From sequence record HE978309: DNA of 64,000 nucleotides; one strand, written 5' to 3'. The position numbers and the translations under genes were made by a program. Shown one piece after another: positions 3,141-45,698 of the stretch. This DNA comes from Enterobacteria phage GEC-3S. The first letter of the stretch is position 1; the number at the start of each line of letters is the position of its first letter. The notes below the pieces were generated by a model. The model ran no database searches and was not told the DNA's origin. It was given only the letters and a program-made list of their open reading frames with translations.

Positions 3141-3174
3141 TATTAAATCCTCATAAAAGAAAAGGGAGACTCCC

Positions 3175-3202
3175 ATTATAGAGAATCTCCCTTGTATGTC
3201 AA
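3175..3202 (-). promoter_or_regulatory. early promoter (TTGACA-N16-TATAAT) with flanking GGGAGA/TCTCCC palindrome
   Basis: -35 overlaps last codons of gp39. Confidence 0.5.
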
Positions 3203-3205
3203 GTG

Positions 3206-5029
3206 TTATGATTGCATCCAAATTTTGCGTTGATCTGCATCTTCGCTATAGAGCAAATCGAATAGCTCTTTATAGTTTTCCGGCAACGTGATGATCTCCA
3301 TTACAGGATCGTTGATCACGCGATGATAATCTGATTCTGTAAGAGATGCTAACCCTTTGATATATCTAATGCTATAACCTTTGATATTATCTCGGTCGTT
3401 CTCAAAATCTTCTAGGTCATAATACCATCGAACATCATCACCTTTCTTTGGTTCCGCAATGATAATAGGTGTTTTGACAAACCTGATTCGACCATCTTCG
3501 AACAATTCAGGCCAACGTGCAAAGAAAGAGATCAGACTAGGTTTAATAGACCCGATCCCGTCAGTATCAGCGTCTGTCATAATCGCAATATTTTTGTATT
3601 GCATAACTTCAAGTGCATCAACACCAAATTGCAAGCCAGTGATCGCCATGATGTTAAAAATTTCGGCGTTCTTAACGATCTTTGCCTCCGGTTGTTCCCA
3701 CGTTGTAAGAGTTTTACCTCGCAACGGGAAACCGCCATGTAAATCTTGATCACGTACAGAGATCAGATAGTTGATTGCGGAATCACCTTCCGTCAAAAAC
3801 AGGGTAGTTTCTGCGTCAGTTCCAATAAGGTTAGCTTTAACGTGTTTTGCTACCTTAGCCCGTTTCGCTGCCTTTGCTGCCTTAGTCGCTGCCGCTTTAT
3901 CTGCTGCCTCTTTGCGTGCCAGGACTACAGCAATAATAGGCATGATAATGTTTTCTTTCTTCGCAATGACTTTAGCCAGTTTTTTAAAGTCTAGATCAAT
4001 GTGTCGCTTGATATCACCAGTTGGATTAGTCAAGCGTTCTTTTGTCTGTGAATCAAAACGAAGGTTAGGCAATTCACGAACAATCAAAATACAGGTCAGT
4101 CCAGACTTAACCGCAGCTTTAGTAACATCAACCTTATATTCTTTCTTGATTCGTTTTACAATCTCTTCACAAAGATCATCTGTCACGTAGTCTACGTGTG
4201 TTCCCCCGTTTTTGGTAAACAGACCATTAGCAAAGGATACTGATTTAAAACCTTCTCCCTCGACCGCAGGAACTAGGGCAAGTGAAAAGTTTTTATCTTC
4301 AATGACAAACGGATCATCATTGTATAGTTTAGCATAATCCTTGAACTTACTAACAATACGTTTACCATTAAACTTAAACGTGATCTTAGGAAAGATTACG
4401 CTCAATGATTGCAGACGGTCATGAACAATATCTAAAACAGAGTTGTCCATCATATAACCTTCGAAGTGGTCGAAGTCTGGGCAAAATGTAACCTTTGTTC
4501 CCTTCAATTTTGATGGTTTCGATGACCATGTGATATTTTCAGCACCATTTGTGCATTGTACGGTCATTTCTGTTTCGCCGTCACAAGTTACACCAGTAAA
4601 CCAATCGCTAAAGAAATTTGACAACGACGACCCCACACCGTTCATACCTTGCGTTAATCGATTTGTATCATCAAAGTTAGACCCTGCTTTTGTTCGTGTC
4701 CATGCGGCTACAGGTTGCGGAATCTGCGTGCCCTCTGGGGTAGTAACCATATGTTGAGGAATACCGCGACCATTGTCTGTTACCGTAACAATATTGTTTT
4801 GGATATCGACGCTAATCACATTGGCAAATTCAAAATTAGTGCGGATCGCCTCGTCTACAGAGTTGTCGATGATCTCATCAATGATTTTAACCAGTCCAGG
4901 AACATATGAAATTTTTGTCCATTTACCGAACAGGAAACGTTGATGTTCTTCGTAAGTTGTTGATCCTATATACATTCCTGCACGCTTAAGGACATGTTCA
5001 CGATCAGATAAAATGCGAAACTCACTCAT
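3206..5029 (-). CDS. 39: DNA topoisomerase II large (ATPase) subunit, unsplit gp39
   Basis: 607 aa; GyrB-type N-terminus LSDREHVLKRAGMYIGS and DNGRGIP; ATG with SD GAGG; no gene-60-type split visible. Confidence 0.9.
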   Translation of the reverse strand: MSEFRILSDREHVLKRAGMYIGSTTYEEHQRFLFGKWTKISYVPGLVKIIDEIIDNSVDEAIRTNFEFANVISVDIQNNIVTVTDNGRGIPQHMVTTPEGTQIPQPVAAWTRTKAGSNFDDTNRLTQGMNGVGSSLSNFFSDWFTGVTCDGETEMTVQCTNGAENITWSSKPSKLKGTKVTFCPDFDHFEGYMMDNSVLDIVHDRLQSLSVIFPKITFKFNGKRIVSKFKDYAKLYNDDPFVIEDKNFSLALVPAVEGEGFKSVSFANGLFTKNGGTHVDYVTDDLCEEIVKRIKKEYKVDVTKAAVKSGLTCILIVRELPNLRFDSQTKERLTNPTGDIKRHIDLDFKKLAKVIAKKENIIMPIIAVVLARKEAADKAAATKAAKAAKRAKVAKHVKANLIGTDAETTLFLTEGDSAINYLISVRDQDLHGGFPLRGKTLTTWEQPEAKIVKNAEIFNIMAITGLQFGVDALEVMQYKNIAIMTDADTDGIGSIKPSLISFFARWPELFEDGRIRFVKTPIIIAEPKKGDDVRWYYDLEDFENDRDNIKGYSIRYIKGLASLTESDYHRVINDPVMEIITLPENYKELFDLLYSEDADQRKIWMQS

Positions 5030-25516: not shown

Positions 25517-26542
25517 CTAACTTTTTGCGCTATTTACTTCGGCTAAAAGTTCATCAGAAATACGCTTGACCGCCGCAAGTTCTTCCGGTTCTAGGTTTTG
25601 TTCTTCCAGATATTCATAGACCATCTGAATAGTGCTTTTAACTTCAATAACACCTGTTTCCTGTGATGCGCTACTCTCCAGCTTATGGACCACTTTTAGC
25701 TTGTGTACAACGGCCTCTAACGCGCTTTCTAACTTACTTAACCCATTATCAGCAACCGTTGCGATAAGACGCACACTAAGCCCCTTAAAGCGTTCTACAT
25801 CGATTTTATCATCTGACGGGTAAGTGATACGCACATGATAAGTTTTATCATTCTGGATAAACTCTTTTTTGTGTGTATCGGTATCGAATACCCAAAAACC
25901 ACGCGGATCGTTTTCGTCACCCGCCGTTAGTGTGTATGGTGTACCAATATACGTTACGTTACCGCCATCGCTGATAGTATGAAAATGACCAGAAAACACT
26001 TCACGGTATTTCTTGAGGAAGTCCGCACTATAACCTTCGGATTTTAGCCCTTTATAGAAATAGTAACCGGACAATTCCCAATGGCCTACACAATATTCGC
26101 TGAATGAGTTTTGAATAAACTCTAAAATCTCTGATTTGTTATCATCACAAAACCACGGGAACAGATCAAATGATACACCATCAAAGGTAACTGTTTCCGG
26201 CTTATCAATAACTTTAATACAATCATACTGGCTTAACACTTCACGCGGTGCGTTAGGCTGGATCTTGTTTCGTTTAAACATATCATGATTTCCGACCGTG
26301 ATATAACAAGTAATACCAGCCTCTTCCAGTAGCGGGATGACCTTAGTACGGTTAAATTTCATTGTTTCATGAGTTATCGCCTTGCGGCAATCAAACCAAT
26401 CCCCTGTTTGAATCCATGTCTTAATATTATGCTCTTTGGAGTATTCAACCGCTTTCTTGATGGTATCAAGAATATACTCATGCACCCACGGATCATCGCC
26501 ACCGATACCAGTATGCAGATCACCTAAAAGCAAAATTTTCAT
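25517..26542 (-). CDS. 47: recombination endonuclease subunit (Mre11/SbcD-like)
   Basis: 341 aa; calcineurin-type phosphoesterase motifs GDLH, GDWFD, GNHD. Confidence 0.9.
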   Translation of the reverse strand: MKILLLGDLHTGIGGDDPWVHEYILDTIKKAVEYSKEHNIKTWIQTGDWFDCRKAITHETMKFNRTKVIPLLEEAGITCYITVGNHDMFKRNKIQPNAPREVLSQYDCIKVIDKPETVTFDGVSFDLFPWFCDDNKSEILEFIQNSFSEYCVGHWELSGYYFYKGLKSEGYSADFLKKYREVFSGHFHTISDGGNVTYIGTPYTLTAGDENDPRGFWVFDTDTHKKEFIQNDKTYHVRITYPSDDKIDVERFKGLSVRLIATVADNGLSKLESALEAVVHKLKVVHKLESSASQETGVIEVKSTIQMVYEYLEEQNLEPEELAAVKRISDELLAEVNSAKS

Positions 26543-26594
26543 AGTCTCTTCCTCTCTTCGTTTTCGATGCTCTCACTATATCACATAAAAATAA

Positions 26595-26610
26595 AAAGGG
26601 AAACCCCTTT
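26595..26610 (-). terminator. intrinsic terminator
   Basis: AAAGGG-GUUU-CCCUUU followed by UUAUUUUU on minus strand. Confidence 0.5.
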
Positions 26611-26632
26611 CAGAGTCTCCCTTATAAAGCCA

Positions 26633-26920
26633 TTACAGCATACTTAATACCGTTTGCCGTGTACTAATCCACATAGCAGAAAGCAGTTCTGGCGTGTGTG
26701 GCTGTTTGTAGATATCACGTAACTTTCCGATAGCGTAGATATACGCATCACGGTTATCATCGATGATAGCTTGTTCAGCCCACCGCTTAAGGCGTGCAAT
26801 CTCTCGCGAGTTCTTACGCAAGATCTTTTCCGCTTTCTTAGCGGCTTTAGCCTCTAGTTCTGCTTGTACTTTGTCTACTTCATTCACTGCAATCTGGTCA
26901 TGCTGTTCATCGTAAGTCAT
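26633..26920 (-). CDS. hypothetical protein (95 aa)
   Basis: ATG 26920 with SD GGAAGGAAA; track start is TTG. Confidence 0.45.
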   Translation of the reverse strand: MTYDEQHDQIAVNEVDKVQAELEAKAAKKAEKILRKNSREIARLKRWAEQAIIDDNRDAYIYAIGKLRDIYKQPHTPELLSAMWISTRQTVLSML

Positions 26921-26921
26921 G

Positions 26922-27155
26922 TTATTTTCCTTCCGGGATATAGTCAATTATTAAAGAAAATTCATCTTCTGATACATTATAGCTATGTGAGATTGTACCC
27001 GTAAAGACCTCAAGATCCGGTGATTTGATATTGCACGGATCGATAATCACCGGAACGCCGCAATCTCTCAAAAATAATTTGGCGAAATACGGCACAAGGT
27101 CAGTTTCAAACTCTGCTTCTTCCAGCAAACGGGAAATGTTAATTTTCAATCTCAT
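26922..27155 (-). CDS. hypothetical protein (77 aa)
   Basis: ATG; overlaps gp55 stop. Confidence 0.45.
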
Positions 27156-27672
27156 AAAATTGGTCCAGGCTAGGCAATTCCTCGGTTAATACATCTTCAA
27201 CCTTTGGCGCTTTCGGTTTATTGACCGATTCCTCGTAGTTGTTGATTTTATCGTAAATGTCCTGTATGAATGCCTCATCAGCAATCTGGCACATATCAGC
27301 GTCGCGTTCGTCATATACATGATGCACAAAATATTTGTATTTTGCGGCTGTCGCTGTTCTTTCTTTTTTAATGCGCTGCACAAAAGCATTAAAGCACGCT
27401 TGCGTGATGTAAGCATGAGGATTTTTATACTTTGTCTCGTCAAAATTAATCAAACCCTTGACCGCCGCTTCGATTCCGTCGTCGATCATTTCTTCGCGCC
27501 ATGTTTGACTATAACCAGAAAAGTTAAAACGCCGTGATAGATTTTTAGAGATTTGCATAATTGCCAGGCCGATTTGATCGCTCATTGGAACTTGCCGACC
27601 TTCTGCTGCAATTTGTTGTTTCCAACGGCAAATTTCTTCGTAAAGCTCTTTATTGTTTACATAATCAGACAC
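27139..27672 (-). CDS. 55: late-transcription sigma factor
   Basis: 177 aa; long blocks matching T4 gp55 ([29 protein letters not shown]); only in-frame start is GTG with SD GAGGGTG. Confidence 0.9.
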
Positions 27673-27697
27673 TTCGCACCCTCGCTATTATTTAGGA

Positions 27698-27717
27698 AAT
27701 AACCCTTTCGGGCTATT
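27698..27717 (-). other. RNA hairpin with GAAA tetraloop spanning the stop codon of the 489-aa gene
   Basis: AAUAGCCC-GAAA-GGGUUAUU on the minus-strand transcript only; no U-tract. Confidence 0.4.
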
Positions 27718-29182
27718 CCCCATTGCCATTATACTTTCTTTGCTTAGTTATCCACACTCTAACCATCTCTACTGATTCACCGTCAGACGGATCAAGAGTT
27801 TTTCCTTTTTTCTTCATGCGGTACTTAAATCCGTTAAATCTTGCATTCTCTTGCTCGTTAAAGTCGAACATCTTTTTAAATGATTTTCGCCCTTTACGCT
27901 CACCGCATTCTAGCGGAATCATTCGGTCTGTTATTACATTGGCATTAGGTAGAAACGTTTTTAGATAATCCACCAACGCCCAATCAGGAACATATAGATT
28001 AACATTCTCCTTGCTCTCGTTGTCTCTCAGGTTACAACGCAAACATAATTGAAATGCTGGTTCCAGATAATCAGACACATGACGCGCTTTCAAAAACTCG
28101 TTTGTCGGGAGATCGCAACTATTAGCAAGACCTTTTAAAATATCAATCTCCCATCGTTGAGGGTTAAAGCTGAACATCACAGCAACATTTTTATGATGAA
28201 TGTAAGAGTTAAGACCATAAGATCCGTAAGGTATCCGCTCACCAATACCATTTGTGCACGCTTCACGGTCCCGATTCACGGTATAAATGAAGTCATCACC
28301 ACATTCATTTTTAACCATATCAACAAGACGTTCAAAGGTATTGTTTGTTTCTGACTGGTGACGCGACCATCGTTCAGAGTCCGTCATAAGGATGATATTA
28401 ACTCTATCTGTATTTTTATACTCTTTGAAATATAGTCTGGATTCTAGCGCACTCGGAACAAAATCGCAATTTGCATAGTATCGTAGATACTTCCCACTAT
28501 ATGTATCAAAGAGATTTGCACATGCTATCGTAACCTTTTTAAAGTCTCCCCACGTACCGTGTTTGTTATCGTTCAAGAAAACAATTTTCGACCCATTCTT
28601 CCGGTGTCCTTCGTTATGTTTTACCATAACGTTGATTTTCTTCTCTAATAACGCCTCATAAAGCCCTCTAAGAGAAGAATCGATCATATCAGTACCATCC
28701 TTTGCACTTTCTATCTTTTCTTTGATAGCGGCCTTCTCAGAGTCTTTTAGAACTAAGTTCTGTAGGCATTCCGATTCGTCGGCGATTGGTTCGCAATGCT
28801 TCGTGATAAGTTCAAGATTAGACTTAAACGGATACTCATTAAATTCAACCAGTTGAGGAACTTCATCAATGTAAAGAGCATATTCACCAAACATTTTTGA
28901 ACGTTCCATATTAGATAACGCTGTATGTGTAATGAATATCACATCAGCACCGTCTTTAACTGATTGCATTATCGACGCTTGCACTGTCTTAAGGCTTCTT
29001 AGTCTTGTGCTATCAATCAAGACAGCACGACCGCCCATTCTTTTAAACTTATTGTAAGATTGTTCACTTAAAACACGAGATGGCGAAGCAATAACCGCTT
29101 TTTCTTTTGTCTCTAGGACGTGGGAAAGTATAGCATCAGTTTTCCCCGCCGCTGGCAATGCGATTAATGTTTCAATCTTCAT
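27713..29182 (-). CDS. uncharacterised P-loop NTPase (489 aa)
   Basis: ATG with TAATG overlap to upstream gene; Walker A ALPAAGKT at residues 9-16, Walker B-like LYIDEV near residue 105; large Cys/His-containing C-terminal region of unknown fold. Confidence 0.6.
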   Translation of the reverse strand: MKIETLIALPAAGKTDAILSHVLETKEKAVIASPSRVLSEQSYNKFKRMGGRAVLIDSTRLRSLKTVQASIMQSVKDGADVIFITHTALSNMERSKMFGEYALYIDEVPQLVEFNEYPFKSNLELITKHCEPIADESECLQNLVLKDSEKAAIKEKIESAKDGTDMIDSSLRGLYEALLEKKINVMVKHNEGHRKNGSKIVFLNDNKHGTWGDFKKVTIACANLFDTYSGKYLRYYANCDFVPSALESRLYFKEYKNTDRVNIILMTDSERWSRHQSETNNTFERLVDMVKNECGDDFIYTVNRDREACTNGIGERIPYGSYGLNSYIHHKNVAVMFSFNPQRWEIDILKGLANSCDLPTNEFLKARHVSDYLEPAFQLCLRCNLRDNESKENVNLYVPDWALVDYLKTFLPNANVITDRMIPLECGERKGRKSFKKMFDFNEQENARFNGFKYRMKKKGKTLDPSDGESVEMVRVWITKQRKYNGNGE

Positions 29183-29469
29183 TAGAAACCCTTACGTCGT
29201 GCTTTCTGGCATTTCTTGATCATTTTATCAGAAATTTCGCGCTTAGGTGCAATCTCTTTCACACCGAAAGCACTAATGCCAAATTCAGAGAGAATGTATT
29301 CAACCAACAATTCACGCACACGCGCTTTACCGATATTCACGCCGTTATTTTTCAGATATGTCTGGCCTTCGACTTGCATCAGATCTAAATCTGCGTCGGT
29401 AATATTGATTTCTTCCATGCGCCCAAATCGAGAATAAACCATGTGTGCGATTGCATTGTGTACTAACAT
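29182..29469 (-). CDS. hypothetical protein (95 aa)
   Basis: ATG 29469 with SD GAGGAA; stop overlaps start of the NTPase. Confidence 0.5.
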   Translation of the reverse strand: MLVHNAIAHMVYSRFGRMEEINITDADLDLMQVEGQTYLKNNGVNIGKARVRELLVEYILSEFGISAFGVKEIAPKREISDKMIKKCQKARRKGF

Positions 29470-29490
29470 AATATATTCCTCACTCAAGAA

Positions 29491-29649
29491 TTACTTAATG
29501 ATACTTACTTTACCAGATCCATGACAATGAGCGCAACACCCATCACCACGCAATCCTGTTCCGTTACAGTGTTTACACTTCTTCAACGGTAAAGCCATTA
29601 TAGCAAATAAAGCAATAATGAACACCGAAACTAAATTCTCAATAATCAT
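29491..29649 (-). CDS. small membrane-anchored zinc-finger protein (52 aa) with two CxxCxGxG motifs
   Basis: hand-read MIIENLVSVFIIALFAIMALPLKKCKHCNGTGLRGDGCCAHCHGSGKVSIIK; start overlaps end of NrdH-like gene; not in track. Confidence 0.4.
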   Translation of the reverse strand: MIIENLVSVFIIALFAIMALPLKKCKHCNGTGLRGDGCCAHCHGSGKVSIIK

Positions 29650-29908
29650 AAATCGCCCTCAGTTCTTTATAGCCTCCAATGTGCTCGTTGTCAATGAATA
29701 TCTGGGGGTATACATACCGGAGGCTCTTTGAGTTCAGCCTCCCCGCCAGTTCTTCAATCATATCACGGTCGGGAATAATGTCAACCCCGACCTGCTTGAA
29801 TACTGGTTTAAGTGTATACGGAATACCCAGATCATCCAGTAGCTTCATTGCACTAATACAACCATAACAATGATAAGCCTCTTTCGGTATACCGTATATC
29901 TCGATCAT
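29639..29908 (-). CDS. glutaredoxin-like protein (NrdH/NrdC family)
   Basis: 89 aa; CYGC redox motif and C-terminal PQIFID..HIGGY; ATGA overlap with upstream gene. Confidence 0.6.
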   Translation of the reverse strand: MIEIYGIPKEAYHCYGCISAMKLLDDLGIPYTLKPVFKQVGVDIIPDRDMIEELAGRLNSKSLRYVYPQIFIDNEHIGGYKELRAIYDY

Positions 29909-30381
29909 TTCTCAGCCTTTAATCTTTCTAGTTCTTCTTCCAGTTCCTTGATCCGTTGGTCACGTTCAAAGTCACGCTGTAACTTAGTGGCGAATACTCG
30001 TTTAAACTGATTGTAATCATCGATTTTAAACACTTCTTCTTCGCCATAGCGACGCACAGAAACTTCGTAGTTATTGAAGAATTGTTGCATCATTGCTTCG
30101 GATGATAGCTCTGCTGATACCACTTTAAAATATTGATCTTCTGTAGGCGAAAACCAATTACAAGCATAAAGATAAACCTTTTCATTGTCTGGGCACTGGT
30201 AAGCCTTACCATCGATTTCAATCACAGAAACATATTCAGGTATAGTAGATGAATCAATAGCTAAGACTTTAAACTGACGGTCCCCGATAAACTCAGAGAT
30301 CACACGATTCGCATCACTGGTTGCAAAGGCTTTACGCGCTTGTTCGTTTTTCCACTGATAGGTCATACCAACAACAAACAT
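29905..30381 (-). CDS. paralog family A protein (158 aa)
   Basis: start chosen at ATG 30381; N-domain motif GMTYQWK plus C-terminal coiled coil. Confidence 0.45.
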   Translation of the reverse strand: MFVVGMTYQWKNEQARKAFATSDANRVISEFIGDRQFKVLAIDSSTIPEYVSVIEIDGKAYQCPDNEKVYLYACNWFSPTEDQYFKVVSAELSSEAMMQQFFNNYEVSVRRYGEEEVFKIDDYNQFKRVFATKLQRDFERDQRIKELEEELERLKAEK

Positions 30382-30382
30382 A

Positions 30383-31207
30383 TTACCAACCTCGCTCTTT
30401 ACCAATCAAAAATTCAACTTCACGACGTTTAATGTCTTCTTGAAGGTCTTTAATCTTCTGGCGATCTTGCATGATTTCATCCATCTTGTCAAGTGCCGCA
30501 ATGAAATCATCGAAACGTTCAAAGGTTTTACCTTCATTTGCTTCGCCAAATTTAACCATTGTCAGGCCGTAACGACTACTAAACAGACGTTTCAACTGTC
30601 CAACGATTTTAGAATCAGTGGTTATAACTTCCAATTCTTCTACTTCACGAAAGAATTTTCTATCAGAATCAATAAACCAGCTAGTTCCTTTATGGTTACT
30701 ATCTTCGGTTGCACTCATTAGAGTATGGTCTTTACCATCAATTTCAATTACATCAATTTGCCCACATGGACGAACATTTTTAACAGTAAAAGGTCTATAA
30801 TTTATTGCTCGTGCAATAACATAATTAAGATTAGATACGTTTTCAGCATAATGACAGAAGTCGGTCATAGCCTTATCATCTTTCCAAGTATAAGTTTTAC
30901 CAACTTCCCATTTCTGGGGAACTTCTTCAACTTCACGAAAGAATTTTCTATCAAATGGACTAAAGAAATATGTTGCAGTCCAAATGTCTTTTCCTGTAGC
31001 AGTTTTCGCCGTATGATAAACACCGTCTAGCTCTATTGCATCAATCCAACCGTTACCCTCGATCTCGATGATGGTAAATGGCTTGTCACCAATAGCTGCA
31101 CTAATATCGCTGTTAAGTGGAGAAAGAACACCTTCTCCGTTAGTAATAAACTCAGTTTTAGCGTTTACATCTTTCCAAGTGTAAGTTTTACCAATTTCCC
31201 ATTTCAT
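30383..31207 (-). CDS. paralog family A protein with internal tandem duplication (274 aa)
   Basis: ATG with SD AAGGGGA; two copies of W-E-x-GKTYTWKD ... DRKFFREVEE module. Confidence 0.55.
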   Translation of the reverse strand: MKWEIGKTYTWKDVNAKTEFITNGEGVLSPLNSDISAAIGDKPFTIIEIEGNGWIDAIELDGVYHTAKTATGKDIWTATYFFSPFDRKFFREVEEVPQKWEVGKTYTWKDDKAMTDFCHYAENVSNLNYVIARAINYRPFTVKNVRPCGQIDVIEIDGKDHTLMSATEDSNHKGTSWFIDSDRKFFREVEELEVITTDSKIVGQLKRLFSSRYGLTMVKFGEANEGKTFERFDDFIAALDKMDEIMQDRQKIKDLQEDIKRREVEFLIGKERGW

Positions 31208-31219
31208 AATATATTCCCC

Positions 31220-31705
31220 TTAACCGATTTTATCAAGTTCGTTTAATGCTTTCTCAGCTTCCTGTATAGCTTGCACTCTTTCCGGCATTTTGTCAAGAAA
31301 ATCTTTCAACTCTTCAAAACTGGAGATATGACGCAAGGCATTAGCACCGATAGCCGCATGTGATTTGCATTCAAAGCGAATTTTATAATTATCCATAGCC
31401 AATTTGAGAAGGTCTATTAGATCATATTCACGACCAGGCAATAAAACTTCTTTGAAGCACGCTCGGTCGCCATCGGAAAACCATATATTATCACCAACAT
31501 CGATAGAACTAATATAATCCCCTTCGTGATTATAGATTGAACGTACATTACCCCAACGGTCTACAGTAGCGACAGTAAATGGTTTATCTAGATATGTAAA
31601 CACACCATCAATATTAGGTTTTTGTTCGTAACGCCAACAATCACGCAAAATACGCTTTTCGTACTCACCAACCAACTTATATGTCTTCCCTTCTTCCCAT
31701 TTCAT
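31220..31705 (-). CDS. paralog family A protein (161 aa)
   Basis: start chosen at ATG 31705 (MKWEEGKTY...). Confidence 0.5.
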   Translation of the reverse strand: MKWEEGKTYKLVGEYEKRILRDCWRYEQKPNIDGVFTYLDKPFTVATVDRWGNVRSIYNHEGDYISSIDVGDNIWFSDGDRACFKEVLLPGREYDLIDLLKLAMDNYKIRFECKSHAAIGANALRHISSFEELKDFLDKMPERVQAIQEAEKALNELDKIG

Positions 31706-31709
31706 AATA

Positions 31710-32237
31710 TCATCTCTCATTTTTGATACGTGATTCTAATTGGATCATACGGTCGCGCGTTTGCTTATATTCTCGGATATCACCGATCCGGCTAGGCATA
31801 CCATCCAGTACGCTCTTAATCCCTTCTAGGGTAGTGATTTTAGCAATACTATTATGCAATCCCATCTTATCGATTAACTGAATGTCGTAGGCTTCCATAA
31901 GCAGACCCAGACGTTCTAAAGTTAGGTCTTCTTCTTTTTCTTCCGATTCTGGAATCTTAGGTTCAATAGTAACTTCGGTAAAGAAACGACGCTCGCCCGA
32001 CCAAAACCACACACCGGAACAGCCAATAGGGGATTCTTTTAACGTCATAGAGTCGTAACCACTGCCGATAATAGTAATTTCTCTAACATCACCATCATCG
32101 TCAATGTCTTCTACCCTAAACGGGCGACCAGCCAACAGGTCAACAATACATCTGTTAATAGACGACGAAAATTTAGTCAGTTCGGCTTTCGACGCTTCGC
32201 ATTCAATCTTGTAAGTTTTACCAACTTCCCATTCCAT
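31710..32237 (-). CDS. paralog family A protein (175 aa)
   Basis: start at ATG 32237 (MEWEVGKTY...) with SD GAGGTGA. Confidence 0.5.
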   Translation of the reverse strand: MEWEVGKTYKIECEASKAELTKFSSSINRCIVDLLAGRPFRVEDIDDDGDVREITIIGSGYDSMTLKESPIGCSGVWFWSGERRFFTEVTIEPKIPESEEKEEDLTLERLGLLMEAYDIQLIDKMGLHNSIAKITTLEGIKSVLDGMPSRIGDIREYKQTRDRMIQLESRIKNER

Positions 32238-32247
32238 AATAATCACC

Positions 32248-45681: not shown

Positions 45682-45698
45682 CACCCAAAAACAAAAAA

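Follow-up and report, generated by a model that had tools for sequence, protein, structure and literature searches.

The 64,000-nucleotide stretch of Enterobacteria phage GEC-3S analyzed here (sequence record HE978309; hereafter the window) encodes, directly upstream of the late sigma factor gene 55, a 489-amino-acid (aa) protein that is a helicase-type motor and probably serves as an early-expressed accessory DNA helicase of superfamily 2 (SF2), acting on replication or recombination intermediates. In the 3.5 kb around the locus, identity to the Krischvirus members kvi, FL20, and RB49 (Escherichia phages) is 99%, and by this similarity the window is an RB49-like Krischvirus genome. In RB49, the four open reading frames (ORFs) considered here are annotated as nrdH, RB49ORF046c, 55.2 and RB49ORF044c, followed by gene 55; RB49ORF044c is the helicase gene. 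T4-like phages are a reference system for the enzymology of replication and recombination, yet this helicase, which occupies a fixed position in the genera Krischvirus, Pseudotevenvirus, Biquartavirus, Bragavirus, Roskildevirus, and Ishigurovirus, has escaped study owing to the absence of the gene from T4. A literature search on RB49ORF044c or a Krischvirus helicase returned only a 2006 comparative-genomics table recording a weak DEAD/DEAH match; a paper on retron-triggering helicases was set aside as a source, since its subject is UvsW and D10.

A first-pass annotation of the window had described the 489-aa product as a P-loop NTPase, and translation confirmed both its Walker A and its Walker B motif. 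LYIDEV lies near residue 105, where it had been placed (residues 103 to 108), whereas ALPAAGKT occupies residues 8 to 15 rather than 9 to 16. Conservation was assessed in two alignments, one of 25 homologs with identities down to 32% (A1), and one of 40 relatives that are 19 to 28% identical to the query (A2), taken from the 1331 found by a profile search of 1.84 billion representatives (clusters at 50% identity, E up to 1e-3). The homologs in A1 share the series PAAGKT, S..L..QS, VIFITH, LYIDEVP, VTIAxAN, FIYTxNxxR, HGLNxY, and EPAFQLCxRxNxR, and positions K14, D106, E107, G323, N325, Q378, R382, and R386 are invariant in A2. K14 is invariant in both alignments, with G13 and T15 invariant in A1 and nearly so in A2. 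Judged from the alignments, the residues invariant in A2 belong to SF2 motifs I, II, V-like, and VI, where they serve in ATP binding and hydrolysis or as arginine fingers; the enzyme should thus be catalytically intact, and is almost certainly active. Over its full length the protein falls in PHROG 2467 (E 8.8e-175), a family of unknown function, and Pfam DEAD reached 27.4 bits against a gathering cutoff of 26, on the N-terminal domain only; among the 40 distant relatives, 30 matched DEAD and 17 matched ResIII. The large Cys/His-containing region to which the first-pass annotation had drawn attention does hold 10 Cys and 10 His, but C130 and C380 are the only ones of these that are invariant in the 25 homologs, and the sole CxxC lies within motif VI, so that no metal site is indicated and an iron-sulfur (Fe-S) or zinc site there was ruled out. 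The C-terminal tail matched no Pfam domain; its assignment as a helix-turn-helix was dropped, HTH_23 being found in 6 of the 40 distant relatives and in none of the tails of T4-like members.

The AlphaFold2 model of the protein (pLDDT 87.6, pTM 0.75) has two RecA-like domains, the second alpha/beta domain aligning to the RecA2 domains of SF2 enzymes. When the model was compared with the Protein Data Bank (PDB) using Foldseek, a check proposed by the first-pass annotation, all of the strongest neighbors were SF2 helicases or translocases. DinG was among the best structural matches, and the closest overall fold in solved structures was that of the XPD/Rad3/DinG family (e.g., PDB 3crv, 2vl7, 9kqh, and 6fwr), SF2 5′-3′ DNA helicases with which more residues could be aligned than with other SF2 enzymes. 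The insertion at residues 109 to 213 is located where XPD and DinG bear their Arch domain, and in the model it is a mixture of helices and strands. Compared with XPD and DinG, the protein is much smaller, has its Walker A motif at residue 8, and contains no Cys at residues 43 to 102 (between motifs Ia and II), where a four-Cys Fe-S domain would be borne. The CasDinG proteins of type IV CRISPR systems (PDB 8s35_M, 8e2w, and 7xf0) partner a CRISPR effector complex and have an extra N-terminal domain, whereas the present gene is carried by a lytic phage that has no CRISPR components. T4 UvsW, an SF2 enzyme that unwinds R-loops and branched DNA, is likewise phage-encoded and of similar size, and is a candidate functional analogue. 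A Foldseek search of the viral models in BFVD showed that many other phages share this fold, among them Agrobacterium phage Atu_ph07, Ralstonia phiRSL1, and Fusobacterium Fnu1.

Distant relatives of the protein lend support to DNA as its substrate. About half of the best 150 profile matches are 750 to 890 aa long (the ~800-aa relatives; E about 1e-34) and consist of an N-terminal helicase joined to a conserved extension of ~400 residues, in which an invariant DxD within (I/V)WLDxDxG and an NSxS...RxRVxIP motif can be recognized. PriCT is a helical domain that accompanies primases of the archaeo-eukaryotic type; when 10 of the ~800-aa relatives were scanned, PriCT_2 matched one of them at 1e-7, and PriCT_1 and RepB_primase_C gave weak matches. 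A GRxK-rich linker in these relatives resembles the basic tail of the 489-aa protein. Genes of the ~800-aa type (38 loci, L038 to L075) come almost entirely from alphaproteobacterial genomes, and their commonest neighbors are serine recombinases (Resolvase in 10 of 72 neighboring ORFs). Primase-type fusions and the recombinase context together support a role on DNA in replication-type reactions. Some of the ~800-aa genes occupy short contigs of 3 to 4.6 kb (L040, L044, L047, and L050), two of which have high assembly coverage; such contigs could be minute elements that replicate on their own or integrate. The genomic context of the JGI relative P0043 was uninformative. A virus- and plasmid-specific family of SF2-like helicases fused to archaeo-eukaryotic primases has been predicted previously, its nearest homologs being encoded by certain T4-like phages (Kazlauskas et al. 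2018, PMC5862659). That family (pVOG1685/pVOG9714) resembles the relatives described here, with their DxD/PriCT-like module, in being joined to a primase or primase-like part, but its primase is N-terminal, whereas in the ~800-aa proteins the helicase is. Identity of the two families could not be confirmed, as hmmsearch with three profiles gave no match to the SPbeta ORFs.

The first-pass annotation had suggested an accessory module; the helicase gene instead lies inside a deeply conserved block, whose order nrdG-nrdH-55.2-helicase-55-a-gt.5-a-gt.4-47 recurs in 29 distinct IMG/VR viral loci from several genera. Gene 55.2 is upstream of the helicase gene in 23 of these loci (abutting it in ~16), and gene 55 comes after it in 20, its place being taken by gene 34 in RB43-type phages. 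In Krischvirus, RB43-type, and PM2-type phages, 55.2 and the helicase gene abut directly through ATGA or TAATG. Gene order also agrees in Cronus, PM2, 65.2, 44RR, and RB43, annotated examples that include Roskildevirus, Bragavirus, Ishigurovirus, and Biquartavirus. Homologs of the 489-aa protein are encoded by 242 phage records, with hosts in Aeromonas, Escherichia, Cronobacter, Enterobacter, Citrobacter, Klebsiella, Serratia, Proteus, Morganella, and Erwinia. No Tequatrovirus was among the matches listed from these records, in agreement with the earlier remark that T4 has no counterpart at this position, and the corresponding slot of Tequatrovirus RB14 reads 55.2-55.1-ORF065c-55, with no helicase. 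The fixed position and wide retention of the gene argue against a recently acquired module; we regard it as an ancient part of the replication and nucleotide-metabolism block, kept in many lineages but absent from that of T4. In Aeromonas phages of the 44RR/25 type, the gene abutting the helicase gene is one of 168 to 190 aa (L003 2998-3504; L018 to L020 and L036, about 4430-5004), which RefSeq calls DprA-like and which has a GGADGADD motif and no Pfam match; 55.2 lies 1 to 2 kb further upstream.

As an accessory replication or recombination enzyme, the helicase would be made with the early genes and bind phage DNA, where it would use ATP to translocate on single-stranded DNA, presumably in the 5′ to 3′ direction by analogy with its nearest structural relatives. 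Its substrates could then be forks, D-loops, or R-loops, which it would unwind or remodel as an auxiliary to gp41, Dda, and UvsW. Identifying these substrates would close a gap in what is known of the helicases of such phages; mechanistic studies would gain a compact DinG/XPD-type enzyme free of the cluster, and a possible functional link with the persistent neighbor gp55.2, the product of gene 55.2, could be tested. No concept would be changed by this, and everything else in the locus is accounted for. Several points weigh against this reading. The AlphaFold2 model is a prediction built on an alignment of 25 sequences, and its similarity to solved structures is distant (9 to 15% identity, Foldseek TM about 0.45 to 0.51). 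Similarity at the sequence level is that of a generic SF2 protein only: the single 489-aa sequence had no match in the PDB, the A1 profile had two chance-level matches (E above 0.6), and the A2 profile matched only the generic N-terminal region of motifs I to Ia. DEAD_2 (PF06733) and Helicase_C_2 (PF13307) did not match the query at E up to 1, and for the 40 distant relatives neither was among the 25 most-matched of 29 families at E up to 0.01. Also absent is the Fe-S domain, the defining feature of XPD and of most DinG enzymes. Because the Fe-S domain and the family-specific Pfam matches are missing and the profile similarity to the PDB is generic, the protein is an SF2 helicase with a DinG/XPD-like fold and not a member of the XPD/DinG family. 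One solid PriCT_2 match in 10 proteins makes for a weak primase assignment, and the argument from primase fusions draws on relatives only ~20 to 25% identical to the phage protein. The absence of the gene from T4 and its close relatives means that it is dispensable in some backgrounds. Finally, the function of the whole helicase family is read from sequence and predicted structure only, and it is from these that we infer polarity and specific substrate.

Some alternatives concern the neighbors of the helicase gene. The first-pass annotation had counted the 95-aa protein encoded immediately upstream among the small partners of the NTPase, but it belongs to a characterized T4 gene family. Its ORF matched Pfam DUF7570 (E 1.4e-28; 99.2 bits against a cutoff of 27), the protein shares 41.7% identity with its T4-type counterpart, RB14 gp55.2, and is encoded, as in RB14, between nrdH and gene 55, and the gene is annotated as 55.2 in both RB49 and RB43. 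By similarity and position, the 95-aa ORF is the ortholog of T4 gene 55.2, and the three small proteins therefore do not make up a set of partners dedicated to the NTPase. The 95-aa ORF starts with the ATG at 29469, with GAGGAA just upstream; the mechanically called TTG at 29487 would give 101 aa. T4 gp55.2 binds DNA and inhibits relaxation by Escherichia coli topoisomerase I (Topo I), is toxic on overexpression, and gives T4 a fitness advantage (PMC4396842). Topo I inhibition is known from the T4 protein only, to which the RB49-type ortholog is likened by sequence and position.

We consider it unlikely that the helicase and gp55.2 form a functional pair acting on topology and R-loops, with gp55.2 holding back Topo I and the helicase processing the hybrids. 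The Topo I inhibition by the T4 protein would fit such a pair, as would the frequency with which 55.2 lies upstream of the helicase gene (23 of 29 loci, abutting in the three groups of phages named above). Bacterial DinG, moreover, unwinds R-loops and D-loops, and DinG is among the best structural matches of the helicase. However, the helicase is lacking from T4 and from ~850 other phage records that have 55.2, a DprA/SLOG-like gene comes between the two in 44RR/25-type phages, ~1.2 kb of other ORFs do so in Cronus, and T4-like gene order is kept irrespective of function. A wider version, in our view equally doubtful, would make helicase and gp55.2 an ancestral two-gene device for handling R-loops and supercoiling. 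In it, inhibition of Topo I by gp55.2 would let R-loops form or persist, for instance at replication origins, and the helicase would resolve or exploit them, while in T4-type phages only the inhibitor would remain after loss of the helicase; the helicase would belong to a virus- and plasmid-specific clade whose primase-fused form could be the replicative helicase of the ~4-kb recombinase-bearing elements.

It is distinctly improbable that the protein is instead an SF2 translocase associated with the late transcription machinery of gene 55, or an RNA helicase or transcript-release factor. Its gene directly precedes gene 55 in 20 of the 29 loci, and lower-ranked structural matches include poxvirus A18-like and other transcription-linked SF2 helicases as well as the XPD/Rad3 of TFIIH, but RB43-type phages have gene 34 at that place, and T4 late transcription has been fully reconstituted without such a factor. 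DEAD-box RNA helicases, furthermore, align over one domain only (~140 residues), and the primase-fused relatives point to DNA. An exclusion or anti-defense ATPase, as the first-pass annotation had proposed, or a trigger or decoy for host defense helicases, seems to us a long shot as well. PADLOC gave a single weak and partial match (RTasSLATT, E 0.0088, ~60 residues), and NCBIfam gave none to the 489-aa protein. The gene sits in the conserved nrd/55/46-47 block of replication and nucleotide metabolism rather than in a hyperplastic region, and the strict conservation of its catalytic motifs is what a housekeeping nucleic-acid enzyme would show. Defense genes are seen near distant relatives because those relatives ride mobile elements inserted in variable islands, which also counts against an anti-defense role. 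A nucleic-acid kinase or other non-helicase P-loop enzyme, the kinase being another idea of the first-pass annotation and the position of Walker A at the extreme N terminus speaking for it, is hardly credible for a protein with the full set of SF2 motifs, a second RecA-like domain carrying invariant motif VI arginines, DinG/XPD structural matches, and no strongest structural neighbors other than SF2 helicases or translocases.

Coordinates of the helicase gene, its motifs, and the surrounding features are given below.

Table 1. Features of the locus around the SF2 helicase gene (positions in the 64,000-nucleotide window)
Feature	Position	Strand	Evidence
RB49ORF044c, 489-aa SF2 helicase-like ATPase, DinG/XPD-like fold, no Fe-S cluster	27713..29182	-	
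Helicase motif I (Walker A), ALPAAGKT, residues 8-15	29138..29161	-	Translation, alignments
Helicase motif II (Walker B), LYIDEV, residues 103-108	28859..28876	-	Translation, alignments
Insertion of ~105 residues between motifs II and III, residues 109-213	28544..28858	-	Model secondary structure, motif mapping
Helicase motif VI, QLCLRCNLR, residues 378-386	28025..28051	-	Alignment
Basic helical C-terminal tail, residues 418-489, 18 K/R in 72 residues	27716..27931	-	Model, sequence
T4 gene 55.2 ortholog (by similarity), 95 aa from ATG	29182..29469	-	Pfam DUF7570, RB14 identity, RB49/RB43 annotation
RB49ORF046c, 52-aa peptide, N-terminal transmembrane helix and two CxxCxGxG motifs	29491..29649	-	Sequence
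nrdH, glutaredoxin-like CxxC protein, 89 aa	29639..29908	-	ORF translation, Pfam, PHROG, RB49 annotation
Gene 55 (late sigma factor), downstream neighbor	27139..27672	-	RB49 annotation
Stable GAAA-tetraloop hairpin holding the stop codon of the helicase gene; the gene 55 GTG follows 21 nt downstream	27693..27722	-	Folding, hairpin scan

All four ORFs were present on the minus strand at the positions first reported, as seen in the ORF list and by direct translation. They had been described as chained by overlapping stops and starts, which holds for two of the three junctions: nrdH and the 52-aa ORF overlap by 11 nt, and 55.2 and the helicase gene meet in TAATG with one base in common, but a gap of 21 nt separates the stop of the 52-aa ORF from the ATG of 55.2, which has its own Shine-Dalgarno sequence. 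Packing extends further upstream, where ORF048 overlaps nrdH as ATGA, and so is not peculiar to these four genes, which are tightly packed and probably co-translated in part. The locus is a stretch of a conserved early-gene block, nrdD-nrdG-nrdH-55.2-X-55, that is ordinary except for its one helicase-like gene. A late promoter TATAAATA near gene 55 was looked for and rejected, as there is none inside the locus and the three copies in the window are all elsewhere.

The NrdH-like CxxC protein of the first-pass annotation has its CYGC at residues 14 to 17 of the 89-aa ORF. It matched Pfam Glutaredoxin (24.5 bits against a cutoff of 22.9) and the thioredoxin domain family phrog_22, all NCBIfam glutaredoxin models staying under their cutoffs, and its gene adjoins nrdG in the 29 related loci; on these matches, nrdH encodes a glutaredoxin for nucleotide reduction. 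In the 52-aa peptide, the single transmembrane stretch NLVSVFIIALFAIMALPL and the motifs CKHCNGTG and CAHCHGSG are directly visible, as had been noted. A DnaJ-type zinc-finger domain, however, has four CxxCxGxG repeats forming two zinc centers, whereas only two repeats are found here, and the DnaJ family model PF00684 (DnaJ_CXXCXGXG) scored below threshold (14.6 bits against a cutoff of 32.7), so by sequence the likeness is one of motif and not of family membership. The peptide matched phrog_3931 (E 4e-10) and is 96 to 100% conserved in all Krischvirus records, the only phages to have it at this position among the 29 related loci; relatives with 42 to 44% identity, covering both the transmembrane and the zinc parts, occur in unrelated Felixounavirus phages. 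Its conservation, its Felixounavirus relatives, and its GAGGG Shine-Dalgarno sequence argue that it is translated. From these features the gene can be classed as a lineage-specific ORFan for a small membrane-anchored zinc-ribbon protein, and its distribution suggests that it may move between unrelated coliphages.

A GNRA hairpin across the helicase stop codon, also reported by the first-pass annotation, was recovered with a GAAA loop and a 13-bp stem (GGGGAAUAGCCC-GAAA-GGGUUAUUUCC) whose 5′ arm contains the UAG. Folded alone it has an energy of -18.4 kcal/mol, and its 91-nt context is more stable than controls (z = -2.85 versus shuffles). Scanning the window returned ~30 comparably stable hairpins, with coding-strand examples that include GAAA loops at 26596, 34136, and 48106 and UUCG loops at 45698 and 59088, and the spacers between helicase gene and gene 55 in other genera also hold stem-loops. 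The hairpin is an ordinary intercistronic stem-loop, not special to the helicase gene, and probably attenuates or stabilizes the upstream transcript before gene 55. In RB49 and phi1, elements termed PeSLs combine intergenic stem-loops with early promoters and terminate transcription in reporter assays (PMC2839356). The present hairpin resembles them in being a stable stem-loop at a gene boundary of an RB49-type genome, with a TATAAT at 27728-27733(-), 15 nt before the stop codon, but differs in that its -35 element is unconvincing (best 2/6) and its stem is not the typical GGGG...CCCC; in the promoter scan, the TATAAT site was not among the strong promoter-like sites. Among the related loci, the spacer at L013 6437-6570 and those of L011, L012, L015, L016, and L032 contain a GC-rich stem-loop, often with a GCGUAGC-type center. 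In L013, the stem-loop is followed by a sigma70-like TTGACT-17-TATAAT promoter, a PeSL-like arrangement before the late sigma factor gene. Elsewhere in the window, a hairpin at 3162-3193 (-) carries TATAAT in its loop, like PeSL cassettes.

Two further features were observed near the locus. At 26542-26633, the HNH/AP2 homing-endonuclease-like ORF that RB49 carries between gene 47 and a-gt.4 (RB49ORF040c) is missing, and only a 90-nt spacer is found in its place, with a GAAA-loop, T-tailed terminator at 26596-26623(-). Between nrdG and nrdH, at 29905-32246 (-), lie four tandem paralogous ORFs of 166, 274, 166, and 178 aa with N termini of the form MKWE.GKTY. The two that were examined matched phrog_5347 (E 2e-60 and 5e-92), the 274-aa ORF having two copies of the domain, and also gave weak matches to PHROGs annotated as "goF mRNA metabolism modulator."

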